64,000 bases of DNA from an uncultured Pelagibacteraceae bacterium (GCA_902577075.1 CACGXV010000002.1:42858-106857), one strand, 5' to 3'. Positions 4,247 to 59,784 are shown, numbered from the stretch's first letter. The notes: a model not told the origin generated them from the letters alone. Numbers and translations: made by a program.

Positions 4247-5045
4247 ATCTTTGCCAGATTGATCTCTCCTCTAACACACTTAAAATCTTCTCAGCATAAT
4301 TTTCTGAGGATGATAATTTTTTTGACAACCATCCCTTAGATTTTTCAAACTTCTTAATCTCAATTTGATCTCCAAATTTTTCTCTTAATATTTGCTCTGC
4401 ATTACCCAATCCATCAATTAAACCTAGTTCTTTTGCTTTTTTTCCTGCCCAAAATTCACCAGAAAAAAGTTCAATACCAGATTTTTTATTGAGTTTATTT
4501 TTTCTACTTTCCTCAACTACATCAATAAAGTCCTGATGTATTTCTAATTGGATATTTTTTAAACGATTTATATCTTCCTCTTTTTCATCCAGAAAAGGGT
4601 CTAAAGTGCTTTTATTCTTGCCAGCTGTGTATACTCTTCTTTGAACCCCAATTTTTTCTATTAAGTTTTTAAATCCGAATGATGCAGAAATAACTCCAAT
4701 TGATCCTATTATCGAACTTGAATTCGCATAAATCTCATCGCCAGCACACGCAATTAGATATCCACCAGATGCAGCTACATCTTCAGCAAAAACTATAACT
4801 TTTTTTTTTGTTTTTTTTGATTGCTCTTTAATGAGTTTATATATCAGATGAGATTGTACTGGAGATCCTCCTGGTGAGTTTATTGTAATTGCCACTGCTA
4901 AGGCTTTTTTTATTGAAAAAGCTTTTTTTATAATTTCTTCTTGGCTTGAAAAATCTATACCTTGTCTAAATCTTCCAGCATTTCCTATAACTCCAGATAA
5001 TTTGAGATGGCTAATTATCTTTTTTTTTTTTAAAAATGAAAACAT
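4236..5045 (-). CDS. S49 family peptidase (SppA/SohB-like)
   Basis: [32 protein letters not shown] motifs. Confidence 0.92.
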
Positions 5046-5156
5046 AAGAATTTTTATAAGTTTTTTAAAATATTTAATAAACTCTAGTTATAATTAAAGA
5101 ATGAGGTGCGTCAATTGATAAGTATAATAATAATTTGTATATAATAGTTTTAAAAT

Positions 5157-6170
5157 ATGGGAACTGTAATACAACTTAAAAAACAAATTAATAACTCTTA
5201 TACAGACTTAAAAAACTCAGTTGAAGATAAGTTGATTCTAGTTGAAGAAAAAATTAATTCCAGATTAGCAAGTAAAGTTGAATTAGTTCAAAAGATGACA
5301 AAATATCATTTAAGCACTAGAGGTAAAAGACTTAGAGCTCTATTAACATTGCAATGCTCAAAAATTTGTGGATACGAGAAAGGATTAAGAGATGTTAATC
5401 TGGCTGCATGTGTTGAATTAATCCATGCAGCAACTTTAATGCACGATGATGTAATTGATAACTCTAAAATTAGAAGAGGAAAAAAGACCTTAAATAAGAT
5501 CTGGGGAAATCACTCGTCAATTTTAGTAGGCGATTATCTCTTAAGTAAATGTTTTGAAATGATGGTTGAAGATGGAAATTTAGAATTACTTAAACTTTTG
5601 GCTAACACATCATCAGAAATTGCTCAAGGTGAAGTTCTACAATTGCAACACAATAAAGAAATAGACATGTTAGAGGAGACATATCTTAATATTATTTCCT
5701 CAAAGACTGCATCATTATTTGCAGCAGCTACTAAAGTTGGCGCAATTATTTCAGAAAAAGATTTAAAATTTAAAAATGCTTTAGAATTTTATGGAAAAAA
5801 CCTAGGTCTCACATTTCAAATTGCAGATGACACATTAGATTATAATTCTGAATTAAAATTATTTGGAAAAAACATTGGTAATGATTTTTATGAGGGAAAA
5901 GTAACTTTACCTATAATTCTACTTTATCAAAAATTAGATGATGTTGAAAAAGAAAAATTAAAATTTTTATTTGAAAAACAAATTCGTGAAAAGAAAGATT
6001 TAGAATATGTTCTAAGTCTAATAAAAAAAAATAACATAATTAAAGAGTGTTATAAAAAAGCAGAGCATTATGTAAATTTAGCCTCTAATTCTTTAAGTGT
6101 ATTTGAGGAGTCTGATGAAAAAAATGTGCTTAAAAATTTAACATCTTTTAGTATAGAGAGAAATTTCTAA
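5157..6170 (+). CDS. ispB: Long-chain polyprenyl diphosphate synthase
   Basis: ELIHAATLMHDDVID...RRG and FQIADD aspartate-rich motifs, KTASLF, EGKVTLP. Confidence 0.9.
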   Translation: MGTVIQLKKQINNSYTDLKNSVEDKLILVEEKINSRLASKVELVQKMTKYHLSTRGKRLRALLTLQCSKICGYEKGLRDVNLAACVELIHAATLMHDDVIDNSKIRRGKKTLNKIWGNHSSILVGDYLLSKCFEMMVEDGNLELLKLLANTSSEIAQGEVLQLQHNKEIDMLEETYLNIISSKTASLFAAATKVGAIISEKDLKFKNALEFYGKNLGLTFQIADDTLDYNSELKLFGKNIGNDFYEGKVTLPIILLYQKLDDVEKEKLKFLFEKQIREKKDLEYVLSLIKKNNIIKECYKKAEHYVNLASNSLSVFEESDEKNVLKNLTSFSIERNF

Positions 6171-6791
6171 GGGCTTAGCAATACTTTTTTCCAACTTTGA
6201 GTTTTTTTTAATGTATTTCAATCTTTCATGAATTCGATTTTGACCATCAAGCCAGAATTCTATTTCTTTAGGTTTTATTCTCCAGCCTGACCAGTACTCT
6301 GGTCGTGGTACTTTTTTTTGATTTGGGAATTTTTTTTTAAATTCTTTTATAGATTTATATAAATCGTCTCTTTTTTTTAAAATGCTGCTCTGCTGTGAAG
6401 CCCAAGCACCAATTCTACTTCCATATGCTCTTGATTTATAATATTCATCAGCTTCTTTTTTTGAAACTTTAGATGCAATACCAATTACTCTGATTTGTCT
6501 TTGTAGGCTTTTCCAATGAAAACACATGGAAATTTTTGAAGAATTTTTAATGGCTTTACTTTTATCACTTTTTAAATTTGTATAAAAAACGAAACCATTT
6601 TTATCAAAATCTTTAAGAAGAACCATTCTGACTGTTGGAAATCCTTTTTTATTAACAGTACCTACAGCAAACGCATTTGGGTCATTAATTTCAGTTTTTT
6701 TTGCTTTATTGAACCATTCTTCAAAAAGTTTTATTGGGTTATTATGATCTTTAAAGCAAAGATTTAATCCAAGTGAGTTTTTTTCGTTCAT
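6167..6791 (-). CDS. pdxH: Pyridoxamine 5'-phosphate oxidase (one extra base in A8 run near 3' end)
   Basis: RMVLLK, FVFYTN, QRQIRV, AWASQQS, PEYWSGW, EFW...RIHER. Likely start is ATG 6791. Removing one T from the run at 6202-6209 restores a ...WKKVLLSP* end at 6167. Confidence 0.93.
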
Positions 6792-6823
6792 AATTTTTAA
6801 AAAATAATTTATACAGTAAGATA

Positions 6824-7909
6824 ATGTCATTTAATACTTTTGGAAAGTTATTTAGATTTACTACTTGGGGAGAGTCTCATGGTCCTGCAATTGGGTGTGT
6901 TGTGGACGGATGCCCGCCAAATGTTCCAATAAAGGAAAGTGATATTCAAAAAGAACTTAATAAACGAAAACCAGGTCAATCTAAATTCACAACACAAAGA
7001 AAAGAGGATGACAAAATTAATATTTTATCTGGTGTTTTTGAGGGAAAAACTACTGGAACTCCAATATCTTTGATAATTTATAATAAAGACATGAGATCTA
7101 GAGATTATGAGACAATAAAAAACAAATTTCGACCAGGACATGCAGATTACACTTATTTTAAAAAGTATGGAATTCGGGATTATAGAGGAGGTGGAAGGCA
7201 ATCAGCCCGTGAGACTGCAGCAAGAGTTGCAGCAGGGGCAATTGCAAAAGTAGTTTTGAAAAATAAGATTGGTGCTAAATATCAAGCAGTCGGTGCAGTT
7301 ATACAATTAGGAATTTTAGGGTGCGATATAAACAAATGGAAAGACAAAACTATATCCACAAATCCATTTTTTTGTCCTGACAAATCTGTAATAAAGCTCT
7401 GGGAAAAATATTTACTCAGCATAAGAAAAGCTGGTTCATCTTGTGGAGCAATAATTGAGATAAGAGCAAGAGGAGTACCTTTAGGACTTGGAGCGCCAAT
7501 ATATTCCAAATTAGATATGGATTTAGCAGCTGCGATGATGAGCATTAATGCTGTAAAGGGGGTAAATATTGGATCAGGAATGGATTCAGCTATGCTAACT
7601 GGGGAAGAAAACTCTGATGAGATTTCACAAAGAAAAGGTAAAACTAGTTTTAAATCAAACAATGCTGGTGGAATTTTGGGTGGAATTTCAACAGGTCAAG
7701 AAATAAAAATTTCATTTGCTGTTAAACCAACTTCATCGATTTTATCATCTAGAAAAACAATTGATAAGTTCGGCAAAAATACAACAATATCTGTTAAAGG
7801 AAGACATGACCCGTGTGTAGGAATTAGAGCAGTCCCAATAGGAGAAGCTATGATGCATTGTGTAATTCTTGACCACTATTTAATGAACACTGCTCAAAAT
7901 AAAATTTAA
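6824..7909 (+). CDS. aroC: Chorismate synthase
   Basis: [40 protein letters not shown]. Confidence 0.98.
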
Positions 7910-9820
7910 TTAGATTTTTTTATTAAAACTTTTGAATTTAATGTATCTAAAATCTTATTTTCTATACCAATTGAATCAAGATTTGCAAATTTATACATTA
8001 ACTCTGGTTTATCATGATCTATAAATCTATCAGGCAATATCATTGATCTAAATTTTAAATTGCTATCTAGAAGATTTTTTTCACTAAGAAATTGGCTAAC
8101 ATGAGATCCAAATCCACCAATAGATCCCTCCTCTATTGTGATTATAACTTCATGCTCTGTTGCAATTTGCCAGATTAAATTTTCATCTAAGGGTTTTGCA
8201 AATCTTGCATCAATTATAGAAATATTAATTCCTTTTTTAGATAAATTTTCAGATGCTAAAATACACTCATGAAGTCTTGCACCAAAATTTAAAATTACAA
8301 CTTTTTTTCCAGTTTTAATAATTTTTCCTTTACCCAGCTCAATTTTTTCATTTATTTCTGGTAATTCAATCCCTAGACCATTTCCTCTTGGATATCTAAA
8401 AGCTGAGGGTCTATCATTGATATCTATTGAGGTATTGATCATTCTTACAAGCTCAGCTTCATCGCTAGCCGCCATTACTACAAAATTTGGTAGTGTTGAT
8501 AAGTATGTTATATCAAACGAGCCTGCATGTGTTGGTCCATCAGCGCCAACTAGTCCAGCTCTATCAATTGCAAATCTTACTGGCAAGGATTGAATTGCAA
8601 CATCATGAACAACTTGATCATAAGCTCTTTGAAGAAAAGTTGAGTATATTGCTGCATATGGTTTAAATCCCTCTGTAGCCATTCCAGCGGCAAAAGTTAC
8701 TGCGTGCTGTTCTGCTATTCCAACATCAAACATTCTGTTAGGAAATTTTTTTTCCAAATAAATCCATACCTGTTCCTGATGGCATAGCTGCTGTTATACC
8801 AACAACTTTACTATCCTTTTCAGCATGCTTGATTAAGGTGTTAGCAAATACTTTTGTATATGATGGTGCATTAGATGAAGACTTTATCTGTTCTCCTGTT
8901 TTTACATTAAATTTTGAAACTCCGTGGAACTTATCCTCTGACTTTTCAGCAAACTTATATCCTTTCCCTTTTTGAGTTTTAACATGAATTAAAATGGGAC
9001 CATCATAATTAATTTCTTTTGCATTTTTAAATACAGAAACCATTGTATCAATATCATGTCCGTCTATTGGCCCAATGTAATAAAATCCCATGGAATTAAA
9101 TAAAGTACCACCAGTAACTGCGGATCTTAAAAAATCCTCTGCTTTCCCTGCTTTATTTTTAAATCTTTTTGAGAAGGCAGATATGATTAATTTTAATGTC
9201 TCTCTAAAACTAAAATAAATCTTACCTGACAAAATTTTTGCAAGATACTTTCTCATTGCTCCAACAGGTTTTGCAATTGACATGTCATTATCGTTTAAAA
9301 CGACTATCATTTTTGTCTTACTTTCTCCTGCGTTGTTCATTGCCTCATATGCCATACCAGCACTTATCGCTCCATCACCTATGACTGCAATTACATTATC
9401 AGATTTATTTGACAATTTATTAGCAACAGCCATTCCTAGTGCCGAAGATATAGAAGTTGAACTATGTGCAGCGCCGAAAGGATCATACTCGCTTTCTGAT
9501 CTTTTTGTAAAACCAGACAATCCCATCCCTTTTCTTAGTGTTCTAATTTTATTTTTCCTACCAGTTAATATTTTATGAGGATAGGTTTGGTGCCCAACAT
9601 CCCAAATTAATTTATCATGTGGAGTATTAAATATATAATGCAAAACCACAGTGAGCTCTACAACTCCAAGACCAGCTCCTAGGTGTCCACCAGTTTCTGA
9701 AACAACATCAATTAATTCTTGCCTGACCTCGTCAGCCAAAACTTTTATCTCAGATTGAGATAATTTTCTGATATCACTTGGAAAATTGACGTTGTTTAAA
9801 AATTTGTAATTATTGCTCAT
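7906..9820 (-). CDS. dxs: 1-deoxy-D-xylulose-5-phosphate synthase, split by a one-base frameshift into ORFs 8738-9820 and 7906-8757
   Basis: [47 protein letters not shown] | [25 protein letters not shown]. Break is in the T8 run at 8746-8753. Confidence 0.95.
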
Positions 9821-11874: not shown

Positions 11875-12608
11875 AAAATTTAATTGAGGTCAAAAACATA
11901 AAAAAAAATTATGGAAAAAAAGAAGCAGTAAAGGGAATATCTTTTAATGTTCAGGAAAATGAAATTCTCGGTTTACTTGGACCAAACGGTTCTGGAAAAA
12001 CCACCACAATTGGAATGTTGCTTGGTTTATTAAAACCAACAAGTGGTCAAATTTTTATTAATGATCTCAAACTAGAAGATAATAGAATAAAAATTCTTGA
12101 GATAATTAATTTTATATCACCCTATATTGAATTACCAAAAAAGCTTACAGTTAAGCAAAATCTATATGTTTATTCAAAACTTTATAAAGTTCAGAATATT
12201 AAAGAGAGAATTGAATATCTTTCAGAAAAATTAAGAATAGCAGAATTATTAGATAGTATTACAGGAGAATTATCCTCAGGCCAAAAAAACAGAGTAAGTT
12301 TAGCAAAAGCGTTAATTAATGAACCAAGAGTATTATTACTTGATGAACCAACAGCTTCATTGGATCCAGAAGTTGGGGATTTTGTTAGAACTTTTTTAGA
12401 GGAATACAAAAAAGAAAAAAAAATTTCTATACTTTTAGCTTCTCATAATATGAATGAAGTTACACGTTTGTGTAAGTCAGTACTTATGATGAAAAATGGA
12501 GAAATTATAGATAAAGGTAAACCACAAGATTTAATCGATAAGCATGGAAGAAATAATTTAGAGGAAGTTTTTTTAAAATTATCAAGGAGTAAAAATGAGC
12601 TTAACTAG
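11871..12608 (+). CDS. ABC transporter ATP-binding protein (ABC-2/NodI-like)
   Basis: Walker A GPNGSGKTT, LSSGQ signature, LLLDEPT. Confidence 0.93.
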   Translation: MKNLIEVKNIKKNYGKKEAVKGISFNVQENEILGLLGPNGSGKTTTIGMLLGLLKPTSGQIFINDLKLEDNRIKILEIINFISPYIELPKKLTVKQNLYVYSKLYKVQNIKERIEYLSEKLRIAELLDSITGELSSGQKNRVSLAKALINEPRVLLLDEPTASLDPEVGDFVRTFLEEYKKEKKISILLASHNMNEVTRLCKSVLMMKNGEIIDKGKPQDLIDKHGRNNLEEVFLKLSRSKNELN

Positions 12609-13386
12609 AATGTACGGTCTATTTTTGAGACATTTTTATCTAATTACAAGATCATTTCCTAGAGTTTTGGATTTAGTATATTGGCCCACAATTCAAATTA
12701 CCTTATGGGGATTTATTTCAAATTTTTTTGCAACACACACAACTTATTATAATAACGCAGTTGGGGTAATACTCACTTGTGCAATTCTTTATGATTTTTT
12801 ATTTAGAACAAGTATTGGTTTCAATATGCTTTTTTTAGAGGAAATTTGGAGCAGAAACTTCACAAATCTTTTCATAGCTCCCATGAAAATTGGAGAGATT
12901 TTAATTTCACTTGTTATTACAGCTTTAATAAGATCTTTAATTGGCCTAGTCCCAGCAATTTTGTTAACTTCACCTTTATTTGGAATATCAATTTTAGATT
13001 TAGGGATATTTTTATTTTTTCTATTTTTAAGTCTTTATATTTTTGGTATTACACTTGGTATTCTTGTCTCGTCAGGCTTGCTTAGGTTTGGTCCATCATT
13101 TGAAAATATAGCATGGTCAACAATGTTTTTACTTGCTCCATTTGGATGTATTTATTACCCAATAGATACTTTACCAGAAATTTTTCAAAAAATAGCTTAT
13201 GCACTACCTCTTGTTTATATATTTGAGGAAGCTAGAAATATTTTAATTAACCAAAATGTTAATATTGAGAATGTCTATTATGCTTTCGTTTTGAATGCAG
13301 TCTATTTTACAATTTCGATTATTCTTTTTTATTATTCCTTTAATGCTGCAAAAAAAAAAGGAACGTTAATTAACATGGGTGAGTAA
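12595..13386 (+). CDS. ABC-2 type transporter permease
   Basis: About six hydrophobic segments, YYPIDTLP motif, overlaps ATPase gene. Confidence 0.88.
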   Translation: MSLTRMYGLFLRHFYLITRSFPRVLDLVYWPTIQITLWGFISNFFATHTTYYNNAVGVILTCAILYDFLFRTSIGFNMLFLEEIWSRNFTNLFIAPMKIGEILISLVITALIRSLIGLVPAILLTSPLFGISILDLGIFLFFLFLSLYIFGITLGILVSSGLLRFGPSFENIAWSTMFLLAPFGCIYYPIDTLPEIFQKIAYALPLVYIFEEARNILINQNVNIENVYYAFVLNAVYFTISIILFYYSFNAAKKKGTLINMGE

Positions 13387-13397
13387 ATCAACTTAAT

Positions 13398-14102
13398 TTA
13401 TTCAAAAAATTTTACTTTAATTATTTGGTATAAAGCATTGGCCATATGGTAATATTTTATTTTTTTTTCACTACTGTTTTCTCTAGGTTTGTATTTTATT
13501 GGAATTTCTCCAACTTTAAGTCCTCTTTTAAAGATTCTGCTTATAAATTGAAAATCAAAACCCATATAAAATGAAGAGATAGGTATTTTTTTTACTGCTT
13601 CAGTTTTATAAAGTTTTCCTCCAATAATATCTGTGAAATTATGATTGTAAAACTTATTTGTTAAAAAAGTACAAATAATTGTGGCTAAATAAGATGGTTT
13701 TTTTATCAAACTCCTAATTTTTGATTTTTTTTTAAAATCCTCAGTAATTAATCTTGATCCTAAAACAACATCAAGCTTATTTTCTATTGCATAATTCATC
13801 ATGTTTAAACTTTGTAAATGATCATATTCTAAGTCTGAATATTGAATAAAAATATAATCTGTATCAAGTGAACTAATTCCTTCTTGAATTGTTTTTCCAA
13901 AACCTTCATTTTTTGACCTTAAAATCATTTTTATGTTATTATTTTTAAAGCTTTCTATAATTTGTCGACTTCCATCAGTTGAGGCATTATCTATAATTAA
14001 AATTTCTTTGTTTGGATAATCTATATTAATCACATCGTTTATAGACTGTCTTACAGTTTTAATTTCGTTATATACAGTTATTAAATATCCAATAGACTTC
14101 AT
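13398..14102 (-). CDS. Glycosyltransferase family 2, polyprenol-phosphate-sugar synthase (DPM1)-like
   Basis: VYNE, IIDNASTDGS, SDLEYD, DVVLGSR, EIPIKYKPR, KKIK. Confidence 0.85.
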   Translation of the reverse strand: MKSIGYLITVYNEIKTVRQSINDVINIDYPNKEILIIDNASTDGSRQIIESFKNNNIKMILRSKNEGFGKTIQEGISSLDTDYIFIQYSDLEYDHLQSLNMMNYAIENKLDVVLGSRLITEDFKKKSKIRSLIKKPSYLATIICTFLTNKFYNHNFTDIIGGKLYKTEAVKKIPISSFYMGFDFQFISRIFKRGLKVGEIPIKYKPRENSSEKKIKYYHMANALYQIIKVKFFE

Positions 14103-14170
14103 GAAATTATTTATTTTAAAAATTTATAAGTATATATTAAGTTAGTTATCAAATTAAATAAATTAAAAAA

Positions 14171-15955
14171 ATGAATCTTTCAGATTATGTTCTCAAATTT
14201 TTAGTAAAAAAAAAGATTAAAAAAGTTTTTTTAATTACAGGTGGAGCCATATCTTTTATGGTAGATGCTTTTTCAAGAAATAAAAATATTAAATACATTT
14301 CTGTGGGGCATGAACAAAGTGCAGCAATGATGGCAGATGCTTACTCTAGAATTGGTCCAAATTTTTCATGTACAATGGTTACATCAGGACCTGGTGCCAC
14401 AAATCTACTTACAGGTATAGGTTGCTCGTATTTTGACTCTATTCCATCACTTCATATATGCGGCCAGGTAAATACCTACGAACAACAAAGCTCAAATAAA
14501 AGCACTTTAAATGTAAGACAGGTTGGCTTTCAAGAGACAGACATAGTAAGTATTTCAAAACCAATTACGAAATTTTCCTACAAATTAAAAAAAGCAAATG
14601 AAATAAAATATATTTTGGAAAAATGTTATCATTTAGCAACTACTGGTAGGCCAGGACCTGTTTTACTTGATATACCAATGGATTTGCAAAGGAAGAAAAT
14701 AAATATTAAAAATTTAAGTTCTTTTAAACCTAAATTAGAAAAAATTAAAATTTCTAAAATAAAATTAAATTTTTTAGTAAAAAAAATAATTAATTCAAAA
14801 AAACCTGTTATTATTTTAGGAGGTGGTATCAAATATGCTAAAGCAGAAAAAAACCTAAATAAGTTTTTAAGGCGATTAAGTATACCTATAGTTACGACTT
14901 GGAGTGGAGTTGATTTAATAGATCATTCAAATAAAAATTACATTGGAAATATTGGAGTATATGGAAGTAGAGCTGCAAACTTTACTATTCAAAATTCTGA
15001 TTTAATTTTATCTCTAGGATCTAGATTGGACACAAGAGTAACTGGAGGAGTTCCAAAAAACTTTGCCAGAAATGCCAAAAAAATTGTAGTAGATATTGAT
15101 AAAAATGAATTAAAAAAAAAGAGAGGATTACATATAGATTACAAGATAAATTTAAATGTTAAATATTTTTTAGAAGAATTAAATAAAATATCTTTTAAAA
15201 AAATATCAAAAGAACAATGGACAAAAAAGTGTCTTGTTTGGAGGAGTAAATATCCAATTGTTTCAAATTCTTATTACAAAAATAAGAAATTTGTAAATCC
15301 TTACGTATTTATAGAATATTTATCAAAAAAATTAAAAAAAAAGGATATTATAATTGCTGATGACGGTGGTCATTTAACGTGGACATTACAAGCATTTAAA
15401 ATAAAGTATGGTCAAAAACTTTTTTCTGCTTTTGGCAACTCCCCTATGGGCTATGCGCTACCTGCAAGTATTGGTGCATCAATTGCAAACAAAAATTCTA
15501 GAATAATATGCGTAGATGGTGATGGAAGTTTACAAATTAATCTTCAGGAACTTCACACTATAGATAAACTTAAAATACCAATTAAAATTTTTGTTTTAAA
15601 TAATGATGGTTATGGAATTATAAAACAGTTTCAAGAATTGTATTTAGAAAAGAGATACGAAGCATCTGGAAAAGGTGTAAGCAACCCAAATTTTAAAAAA
15701 ATAGCCAAAGCTTTTAATATCAACTATAATTTAATTAGGAACCATAATAATTTAAGCAAAATACCAAAAATTTTAGAGTCAAGATGTTCCGAAATTATTG
15801 AAGTAAAAATTAATAAGAGTCAGAAAATAATTCCCAAATTACAGTTTGGGAATCCAATAGAGGATATGTCACCATTGCTTCCAAGAGAAGAATTCTGGAA
15901 AAATATGGAAGTAAAATTAATAAGTAGAGATAAAAAAATTTTTGAGGCAAATTGA
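14171..15955 (+). CDS. ThDP-dependent enzyme, acetolactate synthase large-subunit fold, YerE-like carboligase
   Basis: HEQSAAMMADAY, TSGPGATN, RQVGFQETD, RPGPVLLDIP, GDGS...NNDGYG ThDP motif, C-terminal PIEDMSPLLPREE. No ilvH/ilvN next to it; flanked by glycan genes. Confidence 0.85.
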   Translation: MNLSDYVLKFLVKKKIKKVFLITGGAISFMVDAFSRNKNIKYISVGHEQSAAMMADAYSRIGPNFSCTMVTSGPGATNLLTGIGCSYFDSIPSLHICGQVNTYEQQSSNKSTLNVRQVGFQETDIVSISKPITKFSYKLKKANEIKYILEKCYHLATTGRPGPVLLDIPMDLQRKKINIKNLSSFKPKLEKIKISKIKLNFLVKKIINSKKPVIILGGGIKYAKAEKNLNKFLRRLSIPIVTTWSGVDLIDHSNKNYIGNIGVYGSRAANFTIQNSDLILSLGSRLDTRVTGGVPKNFARNAKKIVVDIDKNELKKKRGLHIDYKINLNVKYFLEELNKISFKKISKEQWTKKCLVWRSKYPIVSNSYYKNKKFVNPYVFIEYLSKKLKKKDIIIADDGGHLTWTLQAFKIKYGQKLFSAFGNSPMGYALPASIGASIANKNSRIICVDGDGSLQINLQELHTIDKLKIPIKIFVLNNDGYGIIKQFQELYLEKRYEASGKGVSNPNFKKIAKAFNINYNLIRNHNNLSKIPKILESRCSEIIEVKINKSQKIIPKLQFGNPIEDMSPLLPREEFWKNMEVKLISRDKKIFEAN

Positions 15956-15963
15956 GGTAACTA

Positions 15964-16833
15964 TTGAAAAAGATAATAATAATAGGTAGCTCAGGTTTCA
16001 TTGGAAAGAGTATTAAAGATTATATAAAAAAAAAAAGAATTAATATCTCAAAAGTATTTTCATACTCTAGATCAGAAAAAAAAAATATTATTACAATTAA
16101 AAAACTACCAACAGCTAATTATATTGTTTACTGCATTAATAGTAAAAAAATTGAAGAAAGTAAGAAATATTTTAACCACTTTAAGCAATTACTGGTAGGA
16201 TACTCAAAGAAAACAAAAATTCTATTTTTAAGCTCAGGAGCGGTTTATGGAAAAAATATTAAAAATAAAAAATCCTCAGAAAATCTTAAAATAAATATTA
16301 ATTTAATAAATAAATTTACTGGTTATAAAAAAAATTATGCTAAAGAGAAAATTTTTTTAGAAAAAAAATTTATAGAATTATCAAAAAATGGTTACAAAGT
16401 ATCTATTGCAAGATGTTTTACTTTTGTTGGAGCAAATATTCCAAGAAATTCACATTTTTTAATTGGAAATTTAATAAATAATATTCTTACAAAGAAGGAA
16501 CTTTTTGCAAAATCAAAGTTTAAGGTAATAAGGTCTTTTATGCATACAGATGATTTATCAAAGTGCCTTTTTATGATTATGAATCGAACTAAAAATAATT
16601 GTGATATTTATAATGTAGGTTCTGATGATCAAATTGATATAAAATTGCTATTAAAAAAATTATCAAAAAAATATAAATTAAAAGCTAAAATTTTAAAAAA
16701 ATTTTCCGAAAAAAAAATTGATTACTACGTGCCAAACATAGATAAAATAAAAAAAGAGTTGAGATGGAAGTCTAAATTCAACAGTTTTGAAGCTATAGTA
16801 AATACTATAAAAGAAATAAATTCTATTAAATAA
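15964..16833 (+). CDS. NAD-dependent epimerase/dehydratase/reductase (extended SDR)
   Basis: GSSGFIG, LSSGAVYG, YAKEK (YxxxK), ARCFTFVG, YNVGS; TTG start. Confidence 0.88.
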   Translation: MKKIIIIGSSGFIGKSIKDYIKKKRINISKVFSYSRSEKKNIITIKKLPTANYIVYCINSKKIEESKKYFNHFKQLLVGYSKKTKILFLSSGAVYGKNIKNKKSSENLKININLINKFTGYKKNYAKEKIFLEKKFIELSKNGYKVSIARCFTFVGANIPRNSHFLIGNLINNILTKKELFAKSKFKVIRSFMHTDDLSKCLFMIMNRTKNNCDIYNVGSDDQIDIKLLLKKLSKKYKLKAKILKKFSEKKIDYYVPNIDKIKKELRWKSKFNSFEAIVNTIKEINSIK

Positions 16834-16879
16834 CTAAAAAATTTAATGATTTAATTTAGGTATTTTATTTTTATTGAAT

Positions 16880-16956
16880 TGGTGCGCCCGCAAGGAGTCG
16901 AACCCTGAACCTCCAGAGCCGAAATCTGGCGCTCTATCCAGTTGAGCTACAAGCGC
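16880..16956 (-). tRNA. tRNA-Arg (anticodon UCG), CCA encoded
   Basis: Reverse complement: GCGCTTGTAGCTCAACTGGATAGAGCGCCAGATTTCGGCTCTGGAGGTTCAGGGTTCGACTCCTTGCGGGCGCACCA; anticodon arm CCAGA-TTTCGGC-TCTGG. Confidence 0.95.
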
Positions 16957-43219: not shown

Positions 43220-43296
43220 CGCGGGGTGGAGCAGCCTGGTAGCTCGCAAGGCTCATAACCTTGAGGTCGGCGGTTCAAATCCGTCCCCCGCAACCA
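43220..43296 (+). tRNA. Initiator tRNA-Met (CAU), CCA encoded
   Basis: CGCGGGGTGGAGCAGCCTGGTAGCTCGCAAGGCTCATAACCTTGAGGTCGGCGGTTCAAATCCGTCCCCCGCAACCA; C1:A72 mismatch. Confidence 0.97.
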
Positions 43297-43298
43297 AT

Positions 43299-43991
43299 TT
43301 ATAAACTGAATTTTGATTTATTTGAATCTTTTAAAAAACCTTTCACTGTAGTAATAGTCAATTTCTTAAAACTGTTTCCAAATTTTTCAATCTTTTCAAT
43401 TATTGTTGGTGGAATAGTTATAATTTGGCAACCTAACTGTTTTGCTTGCAAATAATTATAAGGTTCTCTAGTACTTGCCCAGAGAATTTGAACATTTTTA
43501 TATTTTTGAGAAAGTTTTAAACTTTTTTTGAATTGAGGTATTGGATCTTTGCCAGTATCAGCCATTCTACCTGCAAAAATTGAAATTATAACTTTCGTTT
43601 TTTTATTAATATTTTTTAATATTTGTTTAGTTTGTTCTGAAGTGTAGACAGCCGTTATATTTAATTTAATATTATTTTTATTAAGAGTTTTAATAACTTT
43701 TCTCATGAATTTGCCTTGAGAATTTATTACAGGTACTTTTACGTAAACATTTTTACCCCACTTACTAATTTTGTGACCTTGCAAAATCATATTTTCTTCA
43801 TCGTCAGCAAAAACTTCACACGAAATTGGTTTTTTTGTAATTTTTATAATTTTTTTCAAGTAATCTTTATAATTTTTGGCTCCAGCTTTCCTCATTAAAC
43901 TCGGATTTGTTGTAAAGCCTTTTACTATTTTCTTTTTATTGAATTTTTTAATAATTTTAAAGTCAGCAATGTCGCAATAAATCTTAGTCAA
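43299..43991 (-). CDS. tal: Transaldolase family protein (short form)
   Basis: GFTTNPSLM, VYVKVP, LNITAV, SIFAGR.AD, LWASTRE, IITIP. Confidence 0.88.
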   Translation of the reverse strand: MTKIYCDIADFKIIKKFNKKKIVKGFTTNPSLMRKAGAKNYKDYLKKIIKITKKPISCEVFADDEENMILQGHKISKWGKNVYVKVPVINSQGKFMRKVIKTLNKNNIKLNITAVYTSEQTKQILKNINKKTKVIISIFAGRMADTGKDPIPQFKKSLKLSQKYKNVQILWASTREPYNYLQAKQLGCQIITIPPTIIEKIEKFGNSFKKLTITTVKGFLKDSNKSKFSL

Positions 43992-47828: not shown

Positions 47829-47944
47829 GCCTGGCAACGTCCTACTCTTCCATGTCTTAAGACAAAGTACCATCGGCGCAGAAAGGCTTGACTTCCGAGT
47901 TCGGAATGGGATCGGGTATTACCCTTTCGCAATAATTACCAGGC
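47829..47944 (-). rRNA. rrf: 5S ribosomal RNA (solitary)
   Basis: Reverse complement: GCCTGGTAATTATTGCG...CCCGATCCCATTCCGAACTCGGAAGTCAAG...GCGCCGATGGTACT...GAGTAGGACGTTGCCAGGC; terminal helix GCCTGG/CCAGGC. Confidence 0.97.
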
Positions 47945-48029: not shown

Positions 48030-49217
48030 TTAAGATTTTATGAAATTATGTATTTTTTTATGTATGTAATTGATTTCTTTTTTTCCCAATCCCTGGTGAC
48101 AACCAATTAATAAACCATTTTTCATAATATAGTCTGCATTGGGAAATTTATTAACTTTATTTTTGCTATTATTTAAATTTGAAAATGCGGGGTGTCTTAG
48201 TATATTTCCTGAAAATATCGGCCTTGTTTGTATTTGTTTTTTCTCCAAGTACATTTGTAGATCTTTTCTTGAAAATTGATTATTTTTTTTAATTATAATT
48301 GGATAGGCCAAAAAATTTGTGTAAACCCCCTTTAAAATTTTAGGTAGTATAAAAAAATCTTTAAAATTATTAAAAAAATTTCTATGTAAATAAAAATTTT
48401 TATTTCTAATATTAGAAAACTTTTTGAACTTTTTTAGTTGAATAAGTCCAAATGCTGCACCTATTTCTGAAGGCTCAAAATTATAACCTGCCTCTGAAAA
48501 TACAAATTTTTTGTCATATTCAATACCTTTGAGTTTTATATTAAGTCTTTTTTTTATGTTTTCTGAATCTTTTATCAAAGTAGACATTCTTCCCCAGCTT
48601 CTTAAAACTTTTGCTCTTTCATAGTATTTTTTATTGTTAGTAAGTAAGATTCCCCCATTACCTGCGCAACTTATTACATGAGACCCATAAAAACTTGTGA
48701 TAGAAATATCGCTAAAATAACCAGTAGTTTTTTTATAAATTTTAGCTCCTAAGGTATCTGCGGAGTCCTCAACAATTTTAAGATTATACTTATTTGCAAG
48801 TTTCTTAATACTTTTCCAATCAGGAATATTTCCTATTAGATTTGGAATCAATAATAACTTTGTCCTTCTTGAAATTTTATCCTCAATTTTTTCAATATCT
48901 ATTTGTAAAGTTTCAATATTAACATCCACTAAAATTGGTTTTAGATTATAATGTAATAAAGATGAAACTGCAGTTCCAAAATTTAGACAAGGAGTTATTA
49001 CCTCATCTCCAGGTTTTAAATTCAAAACTTTTAAAGCCAACATAATTGCTGAGGAGCCAGAATTTACCATTAAACCAAAAGATTTAGAAAACTTTTTAGA
49101 AATGTTTTTTTCAAACTTAGTCACAGATTTACCCATTTGAGTTGTTTTTCTTAATTGACTTGTGACAGCTTCTATTTCTTTTAATCCATAAACATTTTTT
49201 CCATAGGATATTTTCAT
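48030..49217 (-). CDS. DegT/DnrJ-fold PLP/PMP enzyme, His-type NDP-4-keto-6-deoxyhexose 3-dehydratase-like (RfbH/ColD group)
   Basis: VNSGSSA, PNLIGN, EDSADT, SFYGSH (His at the Schiff-base Lys position), LRSWGR, YDKKFVF...GYN, TRPIFSGNI.RHP. Confidence 0.82.
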   Translation of the reverse strand: MKISYGKNVYGLKEIEAVTSQLRKTTQMGKSVTKFEKNISKKFSKSFGLMVNSGSSAIMLALKVLNLKPGDEVITPCLNFGTAVSSLLHYNLKPILVDVNIETLQIDIEKIEDKISRRTKLLLIPNLIGNIPDWKSIKKLANKYNLKIVEDSADTLGAKIYKKTTGYFSDISITSFYGSHVISCAGNGGILLTNNKKYYERAKVLRSWGRMSTLIKDSENIKKRLNIKLKGIEYDKKFVFSEAGYNFEPSEIGAAFGLIQLKKFKKFSNIRNKNFYLHRNFFNNFKDFFILPKILKGVYTNFLAYPIIIKKNNQFSRKDLQMYLEKKQIQTRPIFSGNILRHPAFSNLNNSKNKVNKFPNADYIMKNGLLIGCHQGLGKKEINYIHKKIHNFIKS

Positions 49218-49229
49218 TTTAATTTTTAT

Positions 49230-50222
49230 CTAATAACTACGTGTATACTTATTTGAATTATCACCAGATATAATTTGATTATGTATCCATTTATAGGTTT
49301 TTTTCAAACCATCTTTAAGTTTTGTACTTGGTACCCAATTCAAATCTTTTTTAATTTTGACATTATCGCTAGATCTACCTCTTACTCCCTTTGGTTTATC
49401 TAAAAGATAATTTTTATTTACTTTAATATCGGCAATATCTTCAATGGTAGATATCATCTGATTTATACTGACTTGTTCATCACTTCCTATATTATACACA
49501 TCTTTTAAATTTGAATTAAATAATTTTTTTGTTCCTTCAATACAATCGTCGATAAACATAAAACTTCTTGTTTGCTCTCCATCACCCCAAACGTCAATCT
49601 CTTTTTGTTTATTTATTTTTGCCAGACATATTTTTCTACATAGTGCAGCAGGAGCTTTTTCCCTTCCACCATCGTAAGTCCCTAAAGGTCCATAAACATT
49701 GTGATATCTAACAACTCGAGTTTCTAAACCAAAGTCTTCATAAAAATGTCTACACATTCTTTCGCTAAAAAGTTTTTCCCAACCATATCCATCTTCTGGC
49801 TGAGCAGGATAAGCATCATCTTCTTTTAATCCTGGTACAAAAACATCCATTTGTTTATCAGCATTATAAACACATGCGCTCGATGAGAAAAAATATTTTT
49901 TTACTTTATTTTCAATACATGCTCTTAATAGATTTGTATTTATTAAAACTGACAGCATACACTCCGCTTTATTATTTTCAATAAAGCCCATTCCTCCCAT
50001 ATTGCATGCCATATTATATATATAGTCAATATTCTTTGTTACCTTTAAACAATTTTGATAATCTTTAAGATCTAATGAATAATTTATATTTTGTTCAAAA
50101 GTTTGAAACCAAAATTCCAATGGTTTAACATCGGCACAAACTACCTCATGACCTTCATCCATTAAAGATTTTACGAGATGACCTCCTATAAAACCACCGG
50201 CACCTGCTATTAAGTATTTCAT
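49230..50222 (-). CDS. GDP-mannose 3',5'-epimerase-like extended SDR
   Basis: GAGGFIG, NMGGMGFI, SSSACVY, AYPAQPEDGYGWEKL, HNVYGP.GT.DGGREKAPAALCRK, GVRGRSSDN. Confidence 0.85.
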   Translation of the reverse strand: MKYLIAGAGGFIGGHLVKSLMDEGHEVVCADVKPLEFWFQTFEQNINYSLDLKDYQNCLKVTKNIDYIYNMACNMGGMGFIENNKAECMLSVLINTNLLRACIENKVKKYFFSSSACVYNADKQMDVFVPGLKEDDAYPAQPEDGYGWEKLFSERMCRHFYEDFGLETRVVRYHNVYGPLGTYDGGREKAPAALCRKICLAKINKQKEIDVWGDGEQTRSFMFIDDCIEGTKKLFNSNLKDVYNIGSDEQVSINQMISTIEDIADIKVNKNYLLDKPKGVRGRSSDNVKIKKDLNWVPSTKLKDGLKKTYKWIHNQIISGDNSNKYTRSY

Positions 50223-50245
50223 AAAAATTTAATATAATTGTTTTT

Positions 50246-51127
50246 TCATTTTGGTCCATATAATTTATTTAAATAATTTTCTGAACCAACCTTTCCAATT
50301 ACTTTTGAATTAATAAATTTATTTTGAACAAAAATTTTTTTTTTTGTTTTGTTTACACTTAAAACTTCATTTATCCAAGATCCAAATCCACCATCTTGAA
50401 TATGATTTTCAAAAGTGACTATTTCGTTATACATTGATAATTTTTTGTATTGACTAGTTTTAACTTTCATACCCCACATTGGGATTGAATACCAATTGAA
50501 TTGTAATTCTTTTTTTTTAAGAAACTTTTTACAATCATTATAGGTAGATCCTGTTGATAATATTAGTTTTTTTGTGTTTTTTTGTTTACTCATTAAATTC
50601 CATTCACCTGGATAAAGATTTTTCTTATCACTTTTTATCTCTATATTTAATGATTTATCTAATCTAAGATATGAAGGCTGGGGATTTTTAAATAAATATT
50701 TCAATGAACTTTTCAATTCATTGTTATCTAAGGGTGAACATATTAGTGTATTAGGTAAAGATCTTATCAAAGAATAATCTTGCAAACCATGATGTGTATA
50801 TCCCAAATTTCCATATCCCAAACCTGAGCCAACAGAAACTATAGTAACTGGCAAGTTATGAAAATCTATATCATTTCGAATTTGCTCAGCACATCTGAAA
50901 GTTGGAAAATTTGCAATGGAATACACAAAAACCTTAAATCCACTCATTGAAAGACCAGCCGCAATACCAATCATAGATTGTTCAGAAACTCCAGCATTAA
51001 AAAATCTATTTGGAAACTCTTTTTTAAAGGGTTCAACTACATTGAAACCTAAATCTCCAACTATTAAAACTATTTTTTCATTCAATCTTGCTTCCTTAAC
51101 GAGGATATCTATAAACAAATTCCTCAT
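50246..51127 (-). CDS. Transketolase-like C-terminal subunit (split TK)
   Basis: GDLGF, NAGVSEQSMIG.AAG, RCAEQIRND, LGYTHH, PSYLRL, ENH...GGFGS. Confidence 0.88.
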   Translation of the reverse strand: MRNLFIDILVKEARLNEKIVLIVGDLGFNVVEPFKKEFPNRFFNAGVSEQSMIGIAAGLSMSGFKVFVYSIANFPTFRCAEQIRNDIDFHNLPVTIVSVGSGLGYGNLGYTHHGLQDYSLIRSLPNTLICSPLDNNELKSSLKYLFKNPQPSYLRLDKSLNIEIKSDKKNLYPGEWNLMSKQKNTKKLILSTGSTYNDCKKFLKKKELQFNWYSIPMWGMKVKTSQYKKLSMYNEIVTFENHIQDGGFGSWINEVLSVNKTKKKIFVQNKFINSKVIGKVGSENYLNKLYGPK

Positions 51128-51131
51128 ATTT

Positions 51132-51905
51132 TTATTTATTGAGTTCCTCTAAACCTAGTTTTAATTCATGATCATTTGGTGGTTTGTAATGCCATAGTAC
51201 TTTATTTTCCATAAAACTTATTCCTTTTCCTTTTATAGTATTTGCAATAATCACAAGTGGTCTATTTGAACTATTTTTTAAAGATTTAAAAATTTCTTTA
51301 TGGTTATGACCATCAATCTCTAATACTTTACATCCAAATGAGGTAAATTTTTTTTTTAATGGCTGTAATTTAAGAGTTTTATTAACAAAATCTAGACTTT
51401 GGATTTTATTATAATCTATTATGATAACTAAATTATTCAAATTGTGGTGAGATATGAAGAGTAAAGATTCCCAATTTGAACCTTCATTTAATTCACCATC
51501 ACTTAAAAGAACAAAAACTTTGCCATTTTTATTTATTATTTTTTTTGATAAAGCGATACCAGCTGAAACAGGTAATCCGTGTCCCAATGAACCTGTCGAT
51601 AAATTTACACCTGGTACTTTATGACTAGAATGTGACATTAAAATTGTTCCATTTTTACCGAAAGTATCAAGTGTTTTTTTTTTAATATAACCCAACTCAT
51701 AAAGCAGGCAATATTGTGCAAGACATGCGTGTCCTTTACTCAGGATGAAAATATTTCTTTTATTTTTTTGCATAAAATTAAAATAGATATTTACTATTAA
51801 ATCTACAATTGAGAGGGAGCTAGCTATATGAGCCGATTTGGCTGCATGTGAAATTTTTAATATGTTTTTTCTGATTTTTTTTGATATTTGATCAATATTT
51901 TTCAT
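51132..51905 (-). CDS. Transketolase-like N-terminal ThDP-binding subunit (split TK)
   Basis: HIASSLS, FILSKGHA, STGSLGHG, SDGELNEGSNWE...DYNKIQ, TIKGKG.SFMEN...WHY. Confidence 0.9.
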   Translation of the reverse strand: MKNIDQISKKIRKNILKISHAAKSAHIASSLSIVDLIVNIYFNFMQKNKRNIFILSKGHACLAQYCLLYELGYIKKKTLDTFGKNGTILMSHSSHKVPGVNLSTGSLGHGLPVSAGIALSKKIINKNGKVFVLLSDGELNEGSNWESLLFISHHNLNNLVIIIDYNKIQSLDFVNKTLKLQPLKKKFTSFGCKVLEIDGHNHKEIFKSLKNSSNRPLVIIANTIKGKGISFMENKVLWHYKPPNDHELKLGLEELNK

Positions 51906-53688: not shown

Positions 53689-54773
53689 AAATTATCTGTT
53701 TTTTTGATTACAAAATTATATAGCTTTCTACAGTTTTCTTCCATTGAAATACTCTTAATTTTTTGTTTAGAAATTTTGTAATTTTTTTTTTTAGCTTGAA
53801 ATAAATTAATTGCTTTTAAAAATTTTATTTTATTATTAGCGATTATTATATCTCGATTTTTTTCATAATTGATTCCTTCTATGCCTTTTTCAGTTGATAT
53901 AATTCTATTATTCCAAATTAATGCCTCTAAAATTTTTATTCTTGTTCCATAACCTTCAAATATCGGTACTAATAAACATATTGACTTTCTATGTAAGTAT
54001 TTAAGTTCACTTGTAGATACAAAATTTAAATTAATAACATTTTTACTATAAAATTTAATTTTATGATTTCCGGTTATAACTAGAAAAATTTTCTTTTTTA
54101 TAAGCTCTGGTATTAAATATTTAATAATATAATCAATTGCTACTTTGTTAGGTCTATAATCATATGATCCACTAAATAAAATAAATTTTTTGGGTAATTT
54201 TCTTTTAGTTTTTTTTTCCTTAAAATTTTTAAGTTTTTTAATATTGAGCGAGTTTGGAAAAAGATATGTATTTTTGTTATACAGTCTCTTAAACCCCATT
54301 TTTTCTTTATTAGAGACAGATGTACTTATATTTGAGTAATTTATAACAAAATTTTCAAAAATATTTGTTAAGTAACATATTAATAAATTGGAGTTTGCTT
54401 TTCTAATTTCGTATTCAATACTATGAGATCTATAAATAATAAATATATTTTTTTGGAAGTATTTAAAAAACAAAATTGTTACAAAGGAATAGAAGATCCA
54501 GCTTGGCCCCTCTAATATTAGTATTTTTTTTTTTTCATTTTGAAAATATTGTTTGATAGCTAAGATTAAATTTAAAATTTTAAAAATTTTAAAAATTGGT
54601 CTATTTTTTTTTATTGTTATTGTTTTAATACTTTTACTATTTAATTTTTTTTCTGAAAGTTGAAAAAGTTTTTTTTCTTTTATTGGCCAAGATAAAAAGA
54701 AATCAGAACATACTCTTCCAGAACCTGTTTTGGGTGGATAACTATCAAAGAATGTTACAATCGCACATTTCAT
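53685..54773 (-). CDS. Glycosyltransferase (GT-B, family 4-like)
   Basis: YPPKTGSG, HSIEYE, FSGSYDY.PN, VPIFEGYGTRIKILEA, STEKGIEG. Confidence 0.82.
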   Translation of the reverse strand: MKCAIVTFFDSYPPKTGSGRVCSDFFLSWPIKEKKLFQLSEKKLNSKSIKTITIKKNRPIFKIFKILNLILAIKQYFQNEKKKILILEGPSWIFYSFVTILFFKYFQKNIFIIYRSHSIEYEIRKANSNLLICYLTNIFENFVINYSNISTSVSNKEKMGFKRLYNKNTYLFPNSLNIKKLKNFKEKKTKRKLPKKFILFSGSYDYRPNKVAIDYIIKYLIPELIKKKIFLVITGNHKIKFYSKNVINLNFVSTSELKYLHRKSICLLVPIFEGYGTRIKILEALIWNNRIISTEKGIEGINYEKNRDIIIANNKIKFLKAINLFQAKKKNYKISKQKIKSISMEENCRKLYNFVIKKTDNL

Positions 54774-56008: not shown

Positions 56009-56016
56009 ACTGAATA

Positions 56017-56943
56017 TTAAAAATTAAATCTTTCTTTTTCTACTACCATAGGAAGATTTCTAACATGTAATAGTATAATATTTATATATTCTCCCAATAG
56101 TCCTAAAAACAAAATTTGAAATCCACTTATTGCGAACAACCCAATTAACAAAGGTGCTTTACCCATTTCAAATTCAGTCCAAAGAAATAATTTTAGTAAA
56201 AGAAAAATTATAGCACAAGAGAAAGAGACAATACTTATTAAAAGTCCACAAATCGTCATAAACCTCAAAGGAACCTTTGAATGTTTTATTATCCCAAGTA
56301 TTGCAACATCAGCAAGCGAGAAAAGATTATTGCTTGATTTTCCTTTTTTTCTTATAGGTTGATTAAATTTTAGTAAGTTAATTTGGGGACCAAGTTCAGC
56401 TAACAAACCTCTGAGGTATGGAATTGGATCATTAATTTTTTTTATAATATCAACAATCGATTTATCAATTATTCCTGATCCTGTTGTATTTTGTGTAAGT
56501 TTTACGTTTGAAATTTTACTCAAAAACCAATAATAAAATTTTTTTAAAATACTGATCACATTTTTTTCTTCAGAGCTTTCTTTTTGCAACAATGTAACTT
56601 TATTTCCATTTTCCCAAGACTGGATTAAATCCGGAATTAATTCAGGTGGATCTTGAAAATCTGCGTTTAATAAAATAACTGCATTTCCAGAGGTTTGCTT
56701 TATAGCATGCACTGGGGAAGCTAATTGGCCATAATTTTTGTTGTTAACAATTAATTTTACTGAATTATTTTTTTTTATTATCTCTTTTACTATTTGGACT
56801 GTTTTATCTAACGAATTATTATCGATTATTATATGTTCATATCTTACATTTAACTTGATAAAGATTTTTTCTACTCTTAAACATAACTCTTTTATATTTT
56901 CTTCTTCATTAAATGTTGGTGTAACAATACTTATAAATGACAT
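56017..56943 (-). CDS. GtrB-like polyprenol-phosphate glycosyltransferase (GT2 with two C-terminal TM segments)
   Basis: PTFNEEENI, IDNNS.D.T, NYGQ, ADFQDPPELI, R..GKS, LGLLGEYI. Confidence 0.88.
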   Translation of the reverse strand: MSFISIVTPTFNEEENIKELCLRVEKIFIKLNVRYEHIIIDNNSLDKTVQIVKEIIKKNNSVKLIVNNKNYGQLASPVHAIKQTSGNAVILLNADFQDPPELIPDLIQSWENGNKVTLLQKESSEEKNVISILKKFYYWFLSKISNVKLTQNTTGSGIIDKSIVDIIKKINDPIPYLRGLLAELGPQINLLKFNQPIRKKGKSSNNLFSLADVAILGIIKHSKVPLRFMTICGLLISIVSFSCAIIFLLLKLFLWTEFEMGKAPLLIGLFAISGFQILFLGLLGEYINIILLHVRNLPMVVEKERFNF

Positions 56944-59746: not shown

Positions 59747-59784
59747 TAAAGATATATACAATTAAAATGATGAAATTGAAAATT

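Follow-up and report, generated by a model that had tools for sequence, protein, structure and literature searches.

A 64-kb stretch of DNA from a SAR11-family genome of 1.36 Mb and ~29% GC (G000:C2:42858-106857, hereafter the window) carries a three-gene islet at the 3' end of a tRNA-Arg gene. This islet is probably the branching module in a pathway of yersiniose type that leads to a C-branched 3,6-dideoxyhexose, with the genes for the precursor lying 31-46 kb away and acting in trans; we put the probability of this reading at about 0.7. The islet encodes a family 2 glycosyltransferase (GT2), a thiamine diphosphate (ThDP)-dependent protein of 594 residues and a short-chain dehydrogenase/reductase (SDR). 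The cytidine diphosphate (CDP)-sugar genes rfbF and rfbG and an RfbH-like 3-dehydratase gene all stand behind the 5S rRNA gene, in what we call the 5S island, and none of them is in the islet (Table 1), just as an original prediction made from the sequence had described. The division of one pathway between two loci, which was the core of that prediction, is supported by the phylogeny of the ThDP protein and by the operons of its relatives, while two of its details, a DdhC-type mechanism for the dehydratase and lipid loading by the islet GT2, have been corrected.

On sequence comparison, the 594-residue protein groups with YerE/JanthE-like carboligases and apart from IlvB, and it is most likely an enzyme that adds a C-acyl branch to a CDP-4-keto-3,6-dideoxyhexose. 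In a maximum-likelihood tree of 89 ThDP proteins (80 loci from a scan of species genomes and three from SAR11, together with the window protein and the other ThDP paralogues of its genome), an IlvB clade of 20 rows includes the genome's IlvI and excludes the window protein, which falls in the sister clade of 65 rows; each clade has 99% support in the Shimodaira-Hasegawa-like approximate likelihood-ratio test (SH-aLRT). The tree is anchored indirectly, through PDB scores and gene neighbourhoods, as YpYerE, ErwE and MMAR_2332 are not among its rows. A YerE-like profile, built from 21 clade members outside SAR11 with rfbF, rfbG and an RfbH-like gene at their locus, gives the window protein 668 bits against 454 on an IlvB profile, and the order is reversed for the genome's IlvI (433 on the YerE-like profile, 820 on the IlvB profile). 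Among solved structures, 5ahk (342.6 bits) and 8rph (304.1 bits), the latter being the YerE-like enzyme JanthE (PMC12188165), score above all acetohydroxyacid synthase (AHAS) chains, which reach 263 bits at most. The fold predicted earlier is evident from the three Pfam domains TPP_enzyme_N, M and C. The catalytic Glu is kept, Glu48 being invariant across a 41-sequence alignment (A1), and the GDG...NN motif is intact at residue 450 (GDGSLQ...NN). The protein ends in ...GNPIEDMSPLLPREEFW..., which bears out the C-terminal tail to which attention had been drawn (PIEDMSPLLPREE), and the pattern P-[ILVM]-E-[DN]-x-x-P-x-[LMIV] is present in 35 of the 65 members of its clade and in 0 of 20 IlvB proteins.

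Databases label homologues of this protein 'acetolactate synthase', and its best NCBIfam matches are models of the large subunit of acetolactate synthase (ALS), with 434 bits on TIGR00118, as would be expected of a second acetolactate/acetohydroxyacid synthase isozyme or of another small-molecule carboligase with no link to sugars. We consider this explanation scarcely credible. The protein stays under the cut-off of every curated ALS model (434.5 bits against 538.35 for TIGR00118), and its gene is flanked by the GT2 gene, the SDR gene and the tRNA, with no IlvH/IlvN-type small subunit adjoining, in line with the prediction. The genome holds five further ThDP paralogues, one of them a true IlvI (TIGR00118, 790.6 bits; NF006581, 1066 bits) with IlvH and IlvC after it, so that the separate ilvIH for which a search had been proposed is found in a complete ilvI-ilvH-ilvC operon elsewhere (G000:C2, ~29.7-34.4 kb). 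The separation from the IlvB clade in the tree and the profile scores point the same way, as does the translational coupling of ThDP orthologues to a sugar 3-dehydratase.

The neighbourhoods of relatives tie the ThDP gene to CDP-sugar synthesis. In the DNA examined around the 64 other loci of the window protein's clade, rfbF, rfbG and an RfbH-like gene occur together at 22, across phyla, and at least one of the three occurs at 32; the corresponding figure for the IlvB clade is 0 of 19 foreign loci. Moreover, the genes that are divided in the window form one operon in SAR11 relatives. In genome G133 the order runs tmRNA, a DUF6044 membrane protein, rfbG, a dehydratase (71% identical to that of the window), the ThDP gene, an SDR, a GtrB-like GT2 and thyX, with the dehydratase and ThDP genes overlapping by 4 bp. 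Contig L124 carries rfbG, two open reading frames (ORFs) for membrane proteins, rfbF, the dehydratase (69%), the ThDP gene (78%), an SDR of islet type (47%), a GtrB-like GT2 (52%) and tRNA-fMet, and here the ThDP gene overlaps the dehydratase gene by 1 nt. Variants of the L124-type operon are found on L125, L127, L128 and L131, and in L030, from a Pelagibacterales metagenome-assembled genome (MAG), rfbF, rfbG and the dehydratase lie at most 4.4 kb from the ThDP gene. G083 has the order tmRNA, a split transketolase, a small GT2 (44%), the ThDP gene and thyX, with rfbF, rfbG and an RfbH of 445 residues 31 kb upstream.

The dehydratase itself reinforces this linkage. The dehydratase of the window shares 69-72% identity with those whose genes immediately precede the ThDP gene in G133, L124, L125, L127 and L131, and among 150 family genomes a dehydratase of this subtype (at least 69% identical) occurs only in G133, which has the ThDP gene. 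Other types of the enzyme are found in the same sample at 48-52% identity in thirteen genomes, which are without the ThDP gene, and at 35-36% in four.

The SDR follows the ThDP stop codon after 8 bp and has the YxxxK motif (YAKEK), as predicted, together with an intact GxxGxxG motif (GSSGFIG). Its AlphaFold 2 (AF2) model (predicted local distance difference test score, pLDDT, 91.6) is that of an extended SDR acting on nucleoside diphosphate (NDP)-sugars; the best fold matches are 8v4g, a CDP-glucitol-forming reductase, and RMD (6x3b), both with TM ~0.74, in a ranking among extended SDRs that is flat and does not discriminate. Orthologues 41-72% identical to it come after the ThDP gene in L123-L128, and more distant relatives (28-35%) lie 0.1-0.8 kb from the ThDP gene in Pedobacter, Mucilaginibacter and an Acidimicrobiaceae MAG. 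Since this position is conserved, the SDR is a candidate YerF analogue, which would reduce the ketone of the branch or of the ring. All three islet genes appear to be maintained: between the window and L123, both of islet type, the ratio of non-synonymous to synonymous substitution rates (dN/dS) is 0.11 for the ThDP gene, 0.15 for the SDR gene and 0.09 for the GT2 gene (range for the ThDP gene 0.09-0.17), values that are approximate at the high dS of 0.5-1.1 and that indicate purifying selection on the islet part of the split module.

That the islet is an insertion, sited at the tRNA-Arg 3' end, follows from relatives that are without it, in which the permease gene abuts tRNA-Arg(TCG) directly. 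With the permease as query in 20 same-genus genomes, 11 loci were fetched, and in all 11 the permease stop codon is followed after ~3-6 bp by tRNA-Arg(TCG) and then RluD; one of these empty sites has a permease 94% identical to that of the window. The predicted layout, with GT2, ThDP and SDR genes between the permease and the tRNA, holds for all ORFs, and the empty sites confirm its status as a separate insert. The same layout (permease, GT2, ThDP, SDR) recurs in the metagenome contigs L123 and L129, with ThDP proteins 85-88% identical to that of the window, and L123 also has tRNA-Arg beside its copy. The ThDP gene is rare among species representatives, turning up in 3 of 150 other genomes of the family and being absent from all 20 of the genus sample, and metagenomes hold hundreds of proteins 74-86% identical to it, 10 loci of which were used for genomic context. 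At the islet we found no integrase and no tRNA-derived direct repeat of the kind that marks integrase-type insertion, only AT-rich chance repeats, and a scan for promoters and terminators gave no signal over shuffled expectation. SAR11 islands have been described as tied to tRNA and transfer-messenger RNA (tmRNA) genes and as nearly free of mobile-element genes (PMC11796062).

The 3-dehydratase of the 5S island is where the prediction needed its first correction, as a DdhC-type mechanism does not fit the protein. In alignment with E1 (3bcx), its SFYGSHVIS segment pairs with SFYPAHHIT and places a His at the position of His220, where the H220K mutant structure 3bb8 has Lys, and the segments that in E1 read EDCCDALG and RDWGRDCYCAPGCDNTC are EDSADTLG and RSWGRMSTLIKDSEN in the window enzyme, with no cysteine for an iron-sulphur cluster. 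It scores 303 bits on NF011936, under the cut-off of 423, and 171 bits against ColD (2gms/3gr9). Judged by these residues the enzyme is ColD-like in its cofactor logic, and because it has the His and is without the [2Fe-2S] cysteines, it should need no DdhD; no recognisable E3/DdhD was found in the 64-kb window, the rest of the genome not having been searched for one.

The substrates, the donor, the action in trans and the glycan target of the pathway, as we infer them, would fit together as follows. RfbF and RfbG of the 5S island would make CDP-4-keto-6-deoxyglucose, from which the dehydratase would remove the 3-OH through pyridoxal/pyridoxamine phosphate, with no iron-sulphur reductase, to give CDP-4-keto-3,6-dideoxyhexose. 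The islet ThDP enzyme would then decarboxylate a 2-oxo acid and add the acyl anion at C4, and the islet SDR would reduce the resulting ketone. PMC12247030 and PMC4753412 describe the chemistry of YerE; its donor is pyruvate, and those of ErwE and MMAR_2332 are longer hydroxy-2-oxo acids (PMC12247030). No aldolase or other recognisable donor-making gene was found among the genes of the SAR11 cassettes. Because no such gene travels with the cassette, we favour a common metabolite, with pyruvate as the simplest guess and a C2 branch as one possibility. The finished CDP-sugar would most likely be loaded onto polyprenyl phosphate by the GtrB-like GT2 of the 5S island and flipped, and the GT-C enzyme encoded beside it would transfer the sugar from polyprenyl phosphate to a surface glycan.

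This assignment of the loading step departs from the prediction, in which the islet GT2 was a DPM1-like lipid loader. A scan of that protein for hydrophobic or membrane segments found none along its 234 residues, and its similarity to known loaders is weak and below the NCBIfam cut-offs: 62 bits for AglJ (325), 31.5 for dolichyl-phosphate hexose transferase (375) and 28 for PpgS (370). In the PDB it matches the Pyrococcus dolichyl phosphate mannose synthase (E 1.2e-5, residues 4-208) no better than it matches TarP-like and other GT2s. Relatives with 44% identity to it adjoin the ThDP gene of G083 and lie close to that of L127, and we regard it as a putative small soluble accessory transferase. 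The GtrB-like GT2 is most likely the better candidate, together with its GT-C partner, since the one-piece operons conserve it: the GT2 encoded after the SDR in L124, L126 and L128 shares 51-54% identity with it. It aligns with Synechocystis sll0501 (5eke) over residues 4-301 at 159.6 bits and with ArnC at 96 bits, has C-terminal hydrophobic helices at 223-295, and remains under the equivalog cut-offs for PgfS and ArnC, as a family member that is an orthologue of neither.

The 412-residue protein encoded directly downstream of this GT2 has the GT-C fold. Its AF2 model (pLDDT 94.2) has weak Foldseek E-values when these are taken alone, and the fold was settled by VIA re-alignment: Pmt4, ALG12 and ArnT match with Z 16-17 and rmsd 4.8-5.8 Å over 313-323 residues, and GT-C enzymes make up nearly all of the top 48 entries (three are PIG-U, a subunit of the glycosylphosphatidylinositol transamidase), the next entry having Z 3.6. 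Two acidic residues of the first periplasmic loop, Glu27 and Asp36, do not vary among 40 homologues and may be catalytic. GT-C homologues accompany the cassette in L128 and L124, and we propose from the model and the similarity searches that 54770-56943 looks like a Gtr-like glycan-decoration pair within the 5S hypervariable region. On L124 (3153-4428) the GT-C homologue appears as two ORFs (168 and 189 residues); the gene could be broken or frameshifted, or the split could stem from an error in sequencing.

Several points weigh against a branching pathway divided in this way. About half of the loci of the YerE-like clade show no CDP genes in the DNA examined, and within the 16-row subclade of the window protein such genes occur at 2 of the 12 loci outside SAR11. 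rfbG is present in 57 of the 150 family genomes and the ThDP gene in 3; because the former is common and the latter rare, most SAR11 CDP-sugar pathways run without the ThDP gene. The co-occurrence across SAR11 genomes that had been proposed as a check is uninformative when taken as presence of rfbG, which all 3 genomes with the ThDP gene possess against a background of 38%, a weak signal on its own; a direct link is seen in the SAR11 operons that hold the ThDP gene with rfbF, rfbG and the same dehydratase subtype. The structure 5ahk, which we presume to be PpYerE, is titled 'acetolactate synthase II' in its entry. In the window 31-46 kb lie between the two modules, which are on different strands and need not be co-regulated. 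Finally, the 5S island could be self-contained, as next to the dehydratase it has an SDR of its own and a split transketolase, gmd and fcl are also in it, and ColD-type enzymes classically act on GDP-sugars.

The presence of gmd and fcl and of a dehydratase of ColD type rather than E1 type raises the possibility that the islet is real and serves another acceptor, either a GDP-4-keto-3,6-dideoxy sugar made by gmd and the ColD-type dehydratase or a keto-sugar made by the split-transketolase cassette, in which case the link to rfbF and rfbG would be coincidental. It would also accord with this that the window's rfbF and rfbG are only 36-50% identical to those of the one-piece SAR11 operons, against 69-72% for the dehydratase. 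We nevertheless consider such an acceptor unlikely: in every one-piece SAR11 operon examined the partners are rfbF and/or rfbG and never gmd, and the clade is paired with rfbF and rfbG at 22 loci across phyla.

It is likewise conceivable that the islet is a stranded fragment of the one-piece cassette that has ceased to contribute to any glycan, and that the 5S-island pathway by itself yields an unbranched or a transketolase-branched dideoxyhexose. The island's own SDR and transketolase would suit such a pathway, as would G014, where the transketolase stands near rfbG without the ThDP gene, and the many rfbG-bearing SAR11 genomes, most of which lack that gene. A fragment of this kind would not be expected to look as the islet does, with three intact genes, conserved catalytic motifs, the same layout in two more contigs at 85-88% ThDP identity and dN/dS values of 0.09-0.15 that speak for selection, and we therefore hold it to be improbable.

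The branching module in trans also has to be seen against the number of places at which its genes are found. Cassette genes occupy at least four sites: tRNA-Arg/permease, tRNA-fMet/transaldolase, tmRNA/thyX and the 5S hypervariable region. On L124 the order is pntB, a transaldolase 70% identical to that of the window, eight cassette genes and the 3' end of tRNA-fMet, and on L126 the contig covers the tRNA-fMet side only. In the window, 2 bp separate tRNA-fMet from the transaldolase gene, and the window is thus the empty form of this second glycan hot spot. Compared with the one-piece operons, the window has a split version, in which the ThDP, SDR and small GT2 genes are at tRNA-Arg and the remainder (dehydratase, GtrB-like GT2, GT-C enzyme, rfbG and rfbF) is behind the 5S gene. 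This leads us to a broader model, whose chances of being right or wrong we judge about equal, in which the YerE-like enzyme, the reductase and the GT2 form a free-standing three-gene plug-in, inserted beside a tRNA gene, that branches the CDP-3,6-dideoxyhexose of the main hypervariable region, so that glycans would vary by modules acting in trans. In this model the genes also combine with the split transketolase as a second putative carboligase.

Table 1. Features of the window discussed in the text, in order of position
Feature	Coordinates	Strand	Evidence or remark
TsaC/Sua5	10942-11874		gene upstream of the islet
ABC ATPase	11871-12608		gene upstream of the islet
ABC-2 permease	12595-13386		last gene before the islet
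Islet, 3.49-kb insertion	13387-16879		between the ABC-2 permease stop and the tRNA-Arg 3' end
GT2, 234 aa	13398-14102	-	ORF call; Pfam Glycos_transf_2, 93.5 bits
YerE-like ThDP-dependent carboligase (predicted), 594 aa	14171-15955	+	three TPP domains
Extended SDR, 289 aa	15964-16833	+	starts 8 bp past the ThDP stop; Pfam Epimerase
tRNA-Arg(TCG)	16880-16956	-	ARAGORN and Rfam; 3' end towards the islet is the insertion point
RluD, RpoH, PurA			beyond tRNA-Arg(TCG)
Empty tRNA-fMet/transaldolase junction	43220-43301		tRNA ends at 43296, transaldolase stop codon starts at 43299
5S rRNA	47829-47943		CDP-sugar island lies behind it
ColD-type NDP-4-keto-6-deoxyhexose 3-dehydratase (putative)	48030-49217	-	best PDB match E1 (3bcx), 202.8 bits
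Second NDP-sugar SDR, 330 aa	49230-50222	-	Pfam Epimerase, 144.7 bits; weak GDP-fucose synthase/GalE similarity
Split transketolase	50246-51905	-	C half 50246-51127, N half 51132-51905; NCBIfam transketolase halves
GT-C-fold polytopic glycosyltransferase, 412 aa	54770-56008	-	no Pfam match; AF2 model
GtrB/ArnC-type polyprenyl-phosphate glycosyltransferase, 308 aa	56017-56943	-	full-length GtrB similarity
rfbG, CDP-glucose 4,6-dehydratase	57913-58983	-	TIGR02622, 387.6 bits (cut-off 278.45)
rfbF, glucose-1-phosphate cytidylyltransferase	58985-59761	-	TIGR02623, 407.3 bits (cut-off 300.25)
gmd, fcl	61757-63756	-	GDP-mannose 4,6-dehydratase, 515 bits; GDP-fucose synthase-like, 364 bits (under the cut-off of 500)

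The kind of system proposed here is already known from the yersiniose pathway, and the present case stands out by its host, by its division over two loci and by drawing on several tRNA and tmRNA hot spots. CDP-yersiniose A synthesis in Yersinia pseudotuberculosis O:6/O:12 (DdhA-D, YerE and YerF) follows the same logic: an ALS-like ThDP enzyme adds the C4 branch once Glc-1-P cytidylyltransferase, CDP-glucose 4,6-dehydratase and a 3-dehydratase have acted, and a reductase comes next (PMC5399914, PMC12247030), and the genes of the SAR11 relatives form one operon as ddh/yer do in Yersinia. The comparison was made at the level of gene families and gene order. Unlike the yersiniose system, the window has a 3-dehydratase without the Fe-S cysteines of E1, a pathway split over two loci 31-46 kb apart, and a delivery step that seems to use a GtrB-like GT2 and a GT-C enzyme in place of an O-unit glycosyltransferase. 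At the level of structure, the window protein shares the three-domain fold of the decarboxylase superfamily with JanthE (8rph/8rpi/8rpj) and 5ahk, and a member of its tree clade, L071, scores 412.7 bits against JanthE. It is nevertheless distant from these solved relatives, more than 150 clusters at 50% identity being closer to it than 5ahk, and its GDG motif is canonical whereas JanthE has CDG (PMC12247030).

The delivery pair resembles Gtr-type modification systems (Synechocystis GtrB, ArnC/ArnT) in that a GtrB/ArnC-like GT2 gene stands directly upstream of a gene for a GT-C protein and the GtrB-like gene comes last in the one-piece SAR11 operons; it differs in that no GtrA-like flippase was identified and in that the donor would be a CDP-linked branched dideoxyhexose, not UDP-glucose or UDP-Ara4FN. 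The split transketolase has counterparts in the split-gene transketolases of Streptomyces miharamycin and amipurimycin biosynthesis, for which hydroxyacetyl branching is proposed: the window pair likewise adjoins keto-sugar-forming genes, and in G083 the split transketolase is directly beside the YerE-like gene, although the window pair belongs to a Gram-negative surface-glycan island. YerE-like clusters are widespread, the review PMC12247030 citing a survey in which more than 200 are reported. The same review states that the 13 putative sugar-branching transketolases of the survey to which it refers are all from Streptomycetes and have so far had no assay.

Susceptibility to phage is believed to be controlled by the glycan islands in SAR11. 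If the model of modules in trans is correct, the phage-exposed glycans of the ocean's most abundant bacterium would be varied by mixing modules, a tRNA hot spot away from the main hypervariable region could host part of a glycan pathway, and we would have a first indication of C-branched sugars in SAR11. Our literature search found no paper linking branched sugars with SAR11, and a detailed paper on its glycan islands gives no analysis of gene function (PMC11898729). Genes labelled 'acetolactate synthase' and 'epimerase' acquire a predicted chemistry, the synthesis of a C-branched 3,6-dideoxyhexose and its delivery on a lipid carrier, and they offer testable enzymes among the ketone-accepting ThDP lyases, a class of biocatalysts wanted by chemists.

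A number of minor observations concern the two loci and the relatives of the ThDP protein. In the 5S island, the dehydratase, the second SDR and the two transketolase halves form a co-oriented cassette (48030-51905), and the transketolase is possibly a second C-C-forming or branching enzyme, to judge by its family and company: in G083 its orthologues (62-67% identical) immediately precede the GT2 and ThDP genes, and its N half occurs in 8 of the 150 family genomes. The position of gmd and fcl just past rfbF suggests that the island feeds both CDP- and GDP-deoxyhexose routes. A more distant relative of the ThDP protein (46% identical; L010/L013, G013:C53:12393-14156), from a genome of the family, contains two in-frame TAA codons and may be a pseudogene or an assembly error; its genome has 8% contamination and no rfbG over the cut-off. 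Eight relatives (P0126, P0137, P0148, P0150, P0152, P0170, P0198 and P0271) are fused or extended forms, with radical SAM/SPASM, GNAT, HAD phosphatase, methyltransferase or cupin partners or, in some, with N-terminal extensions of ~250 residues that have no Pfam match; the fusions fit sugar tailoring and are not decisive. Lastly, a single SAR11-like CDP-sugar operon on L127 carries tandem ThDP paralogues (4456-7982) that share 65% and 42% identity with the window protein, which suggests two distinct branching steps or donors.

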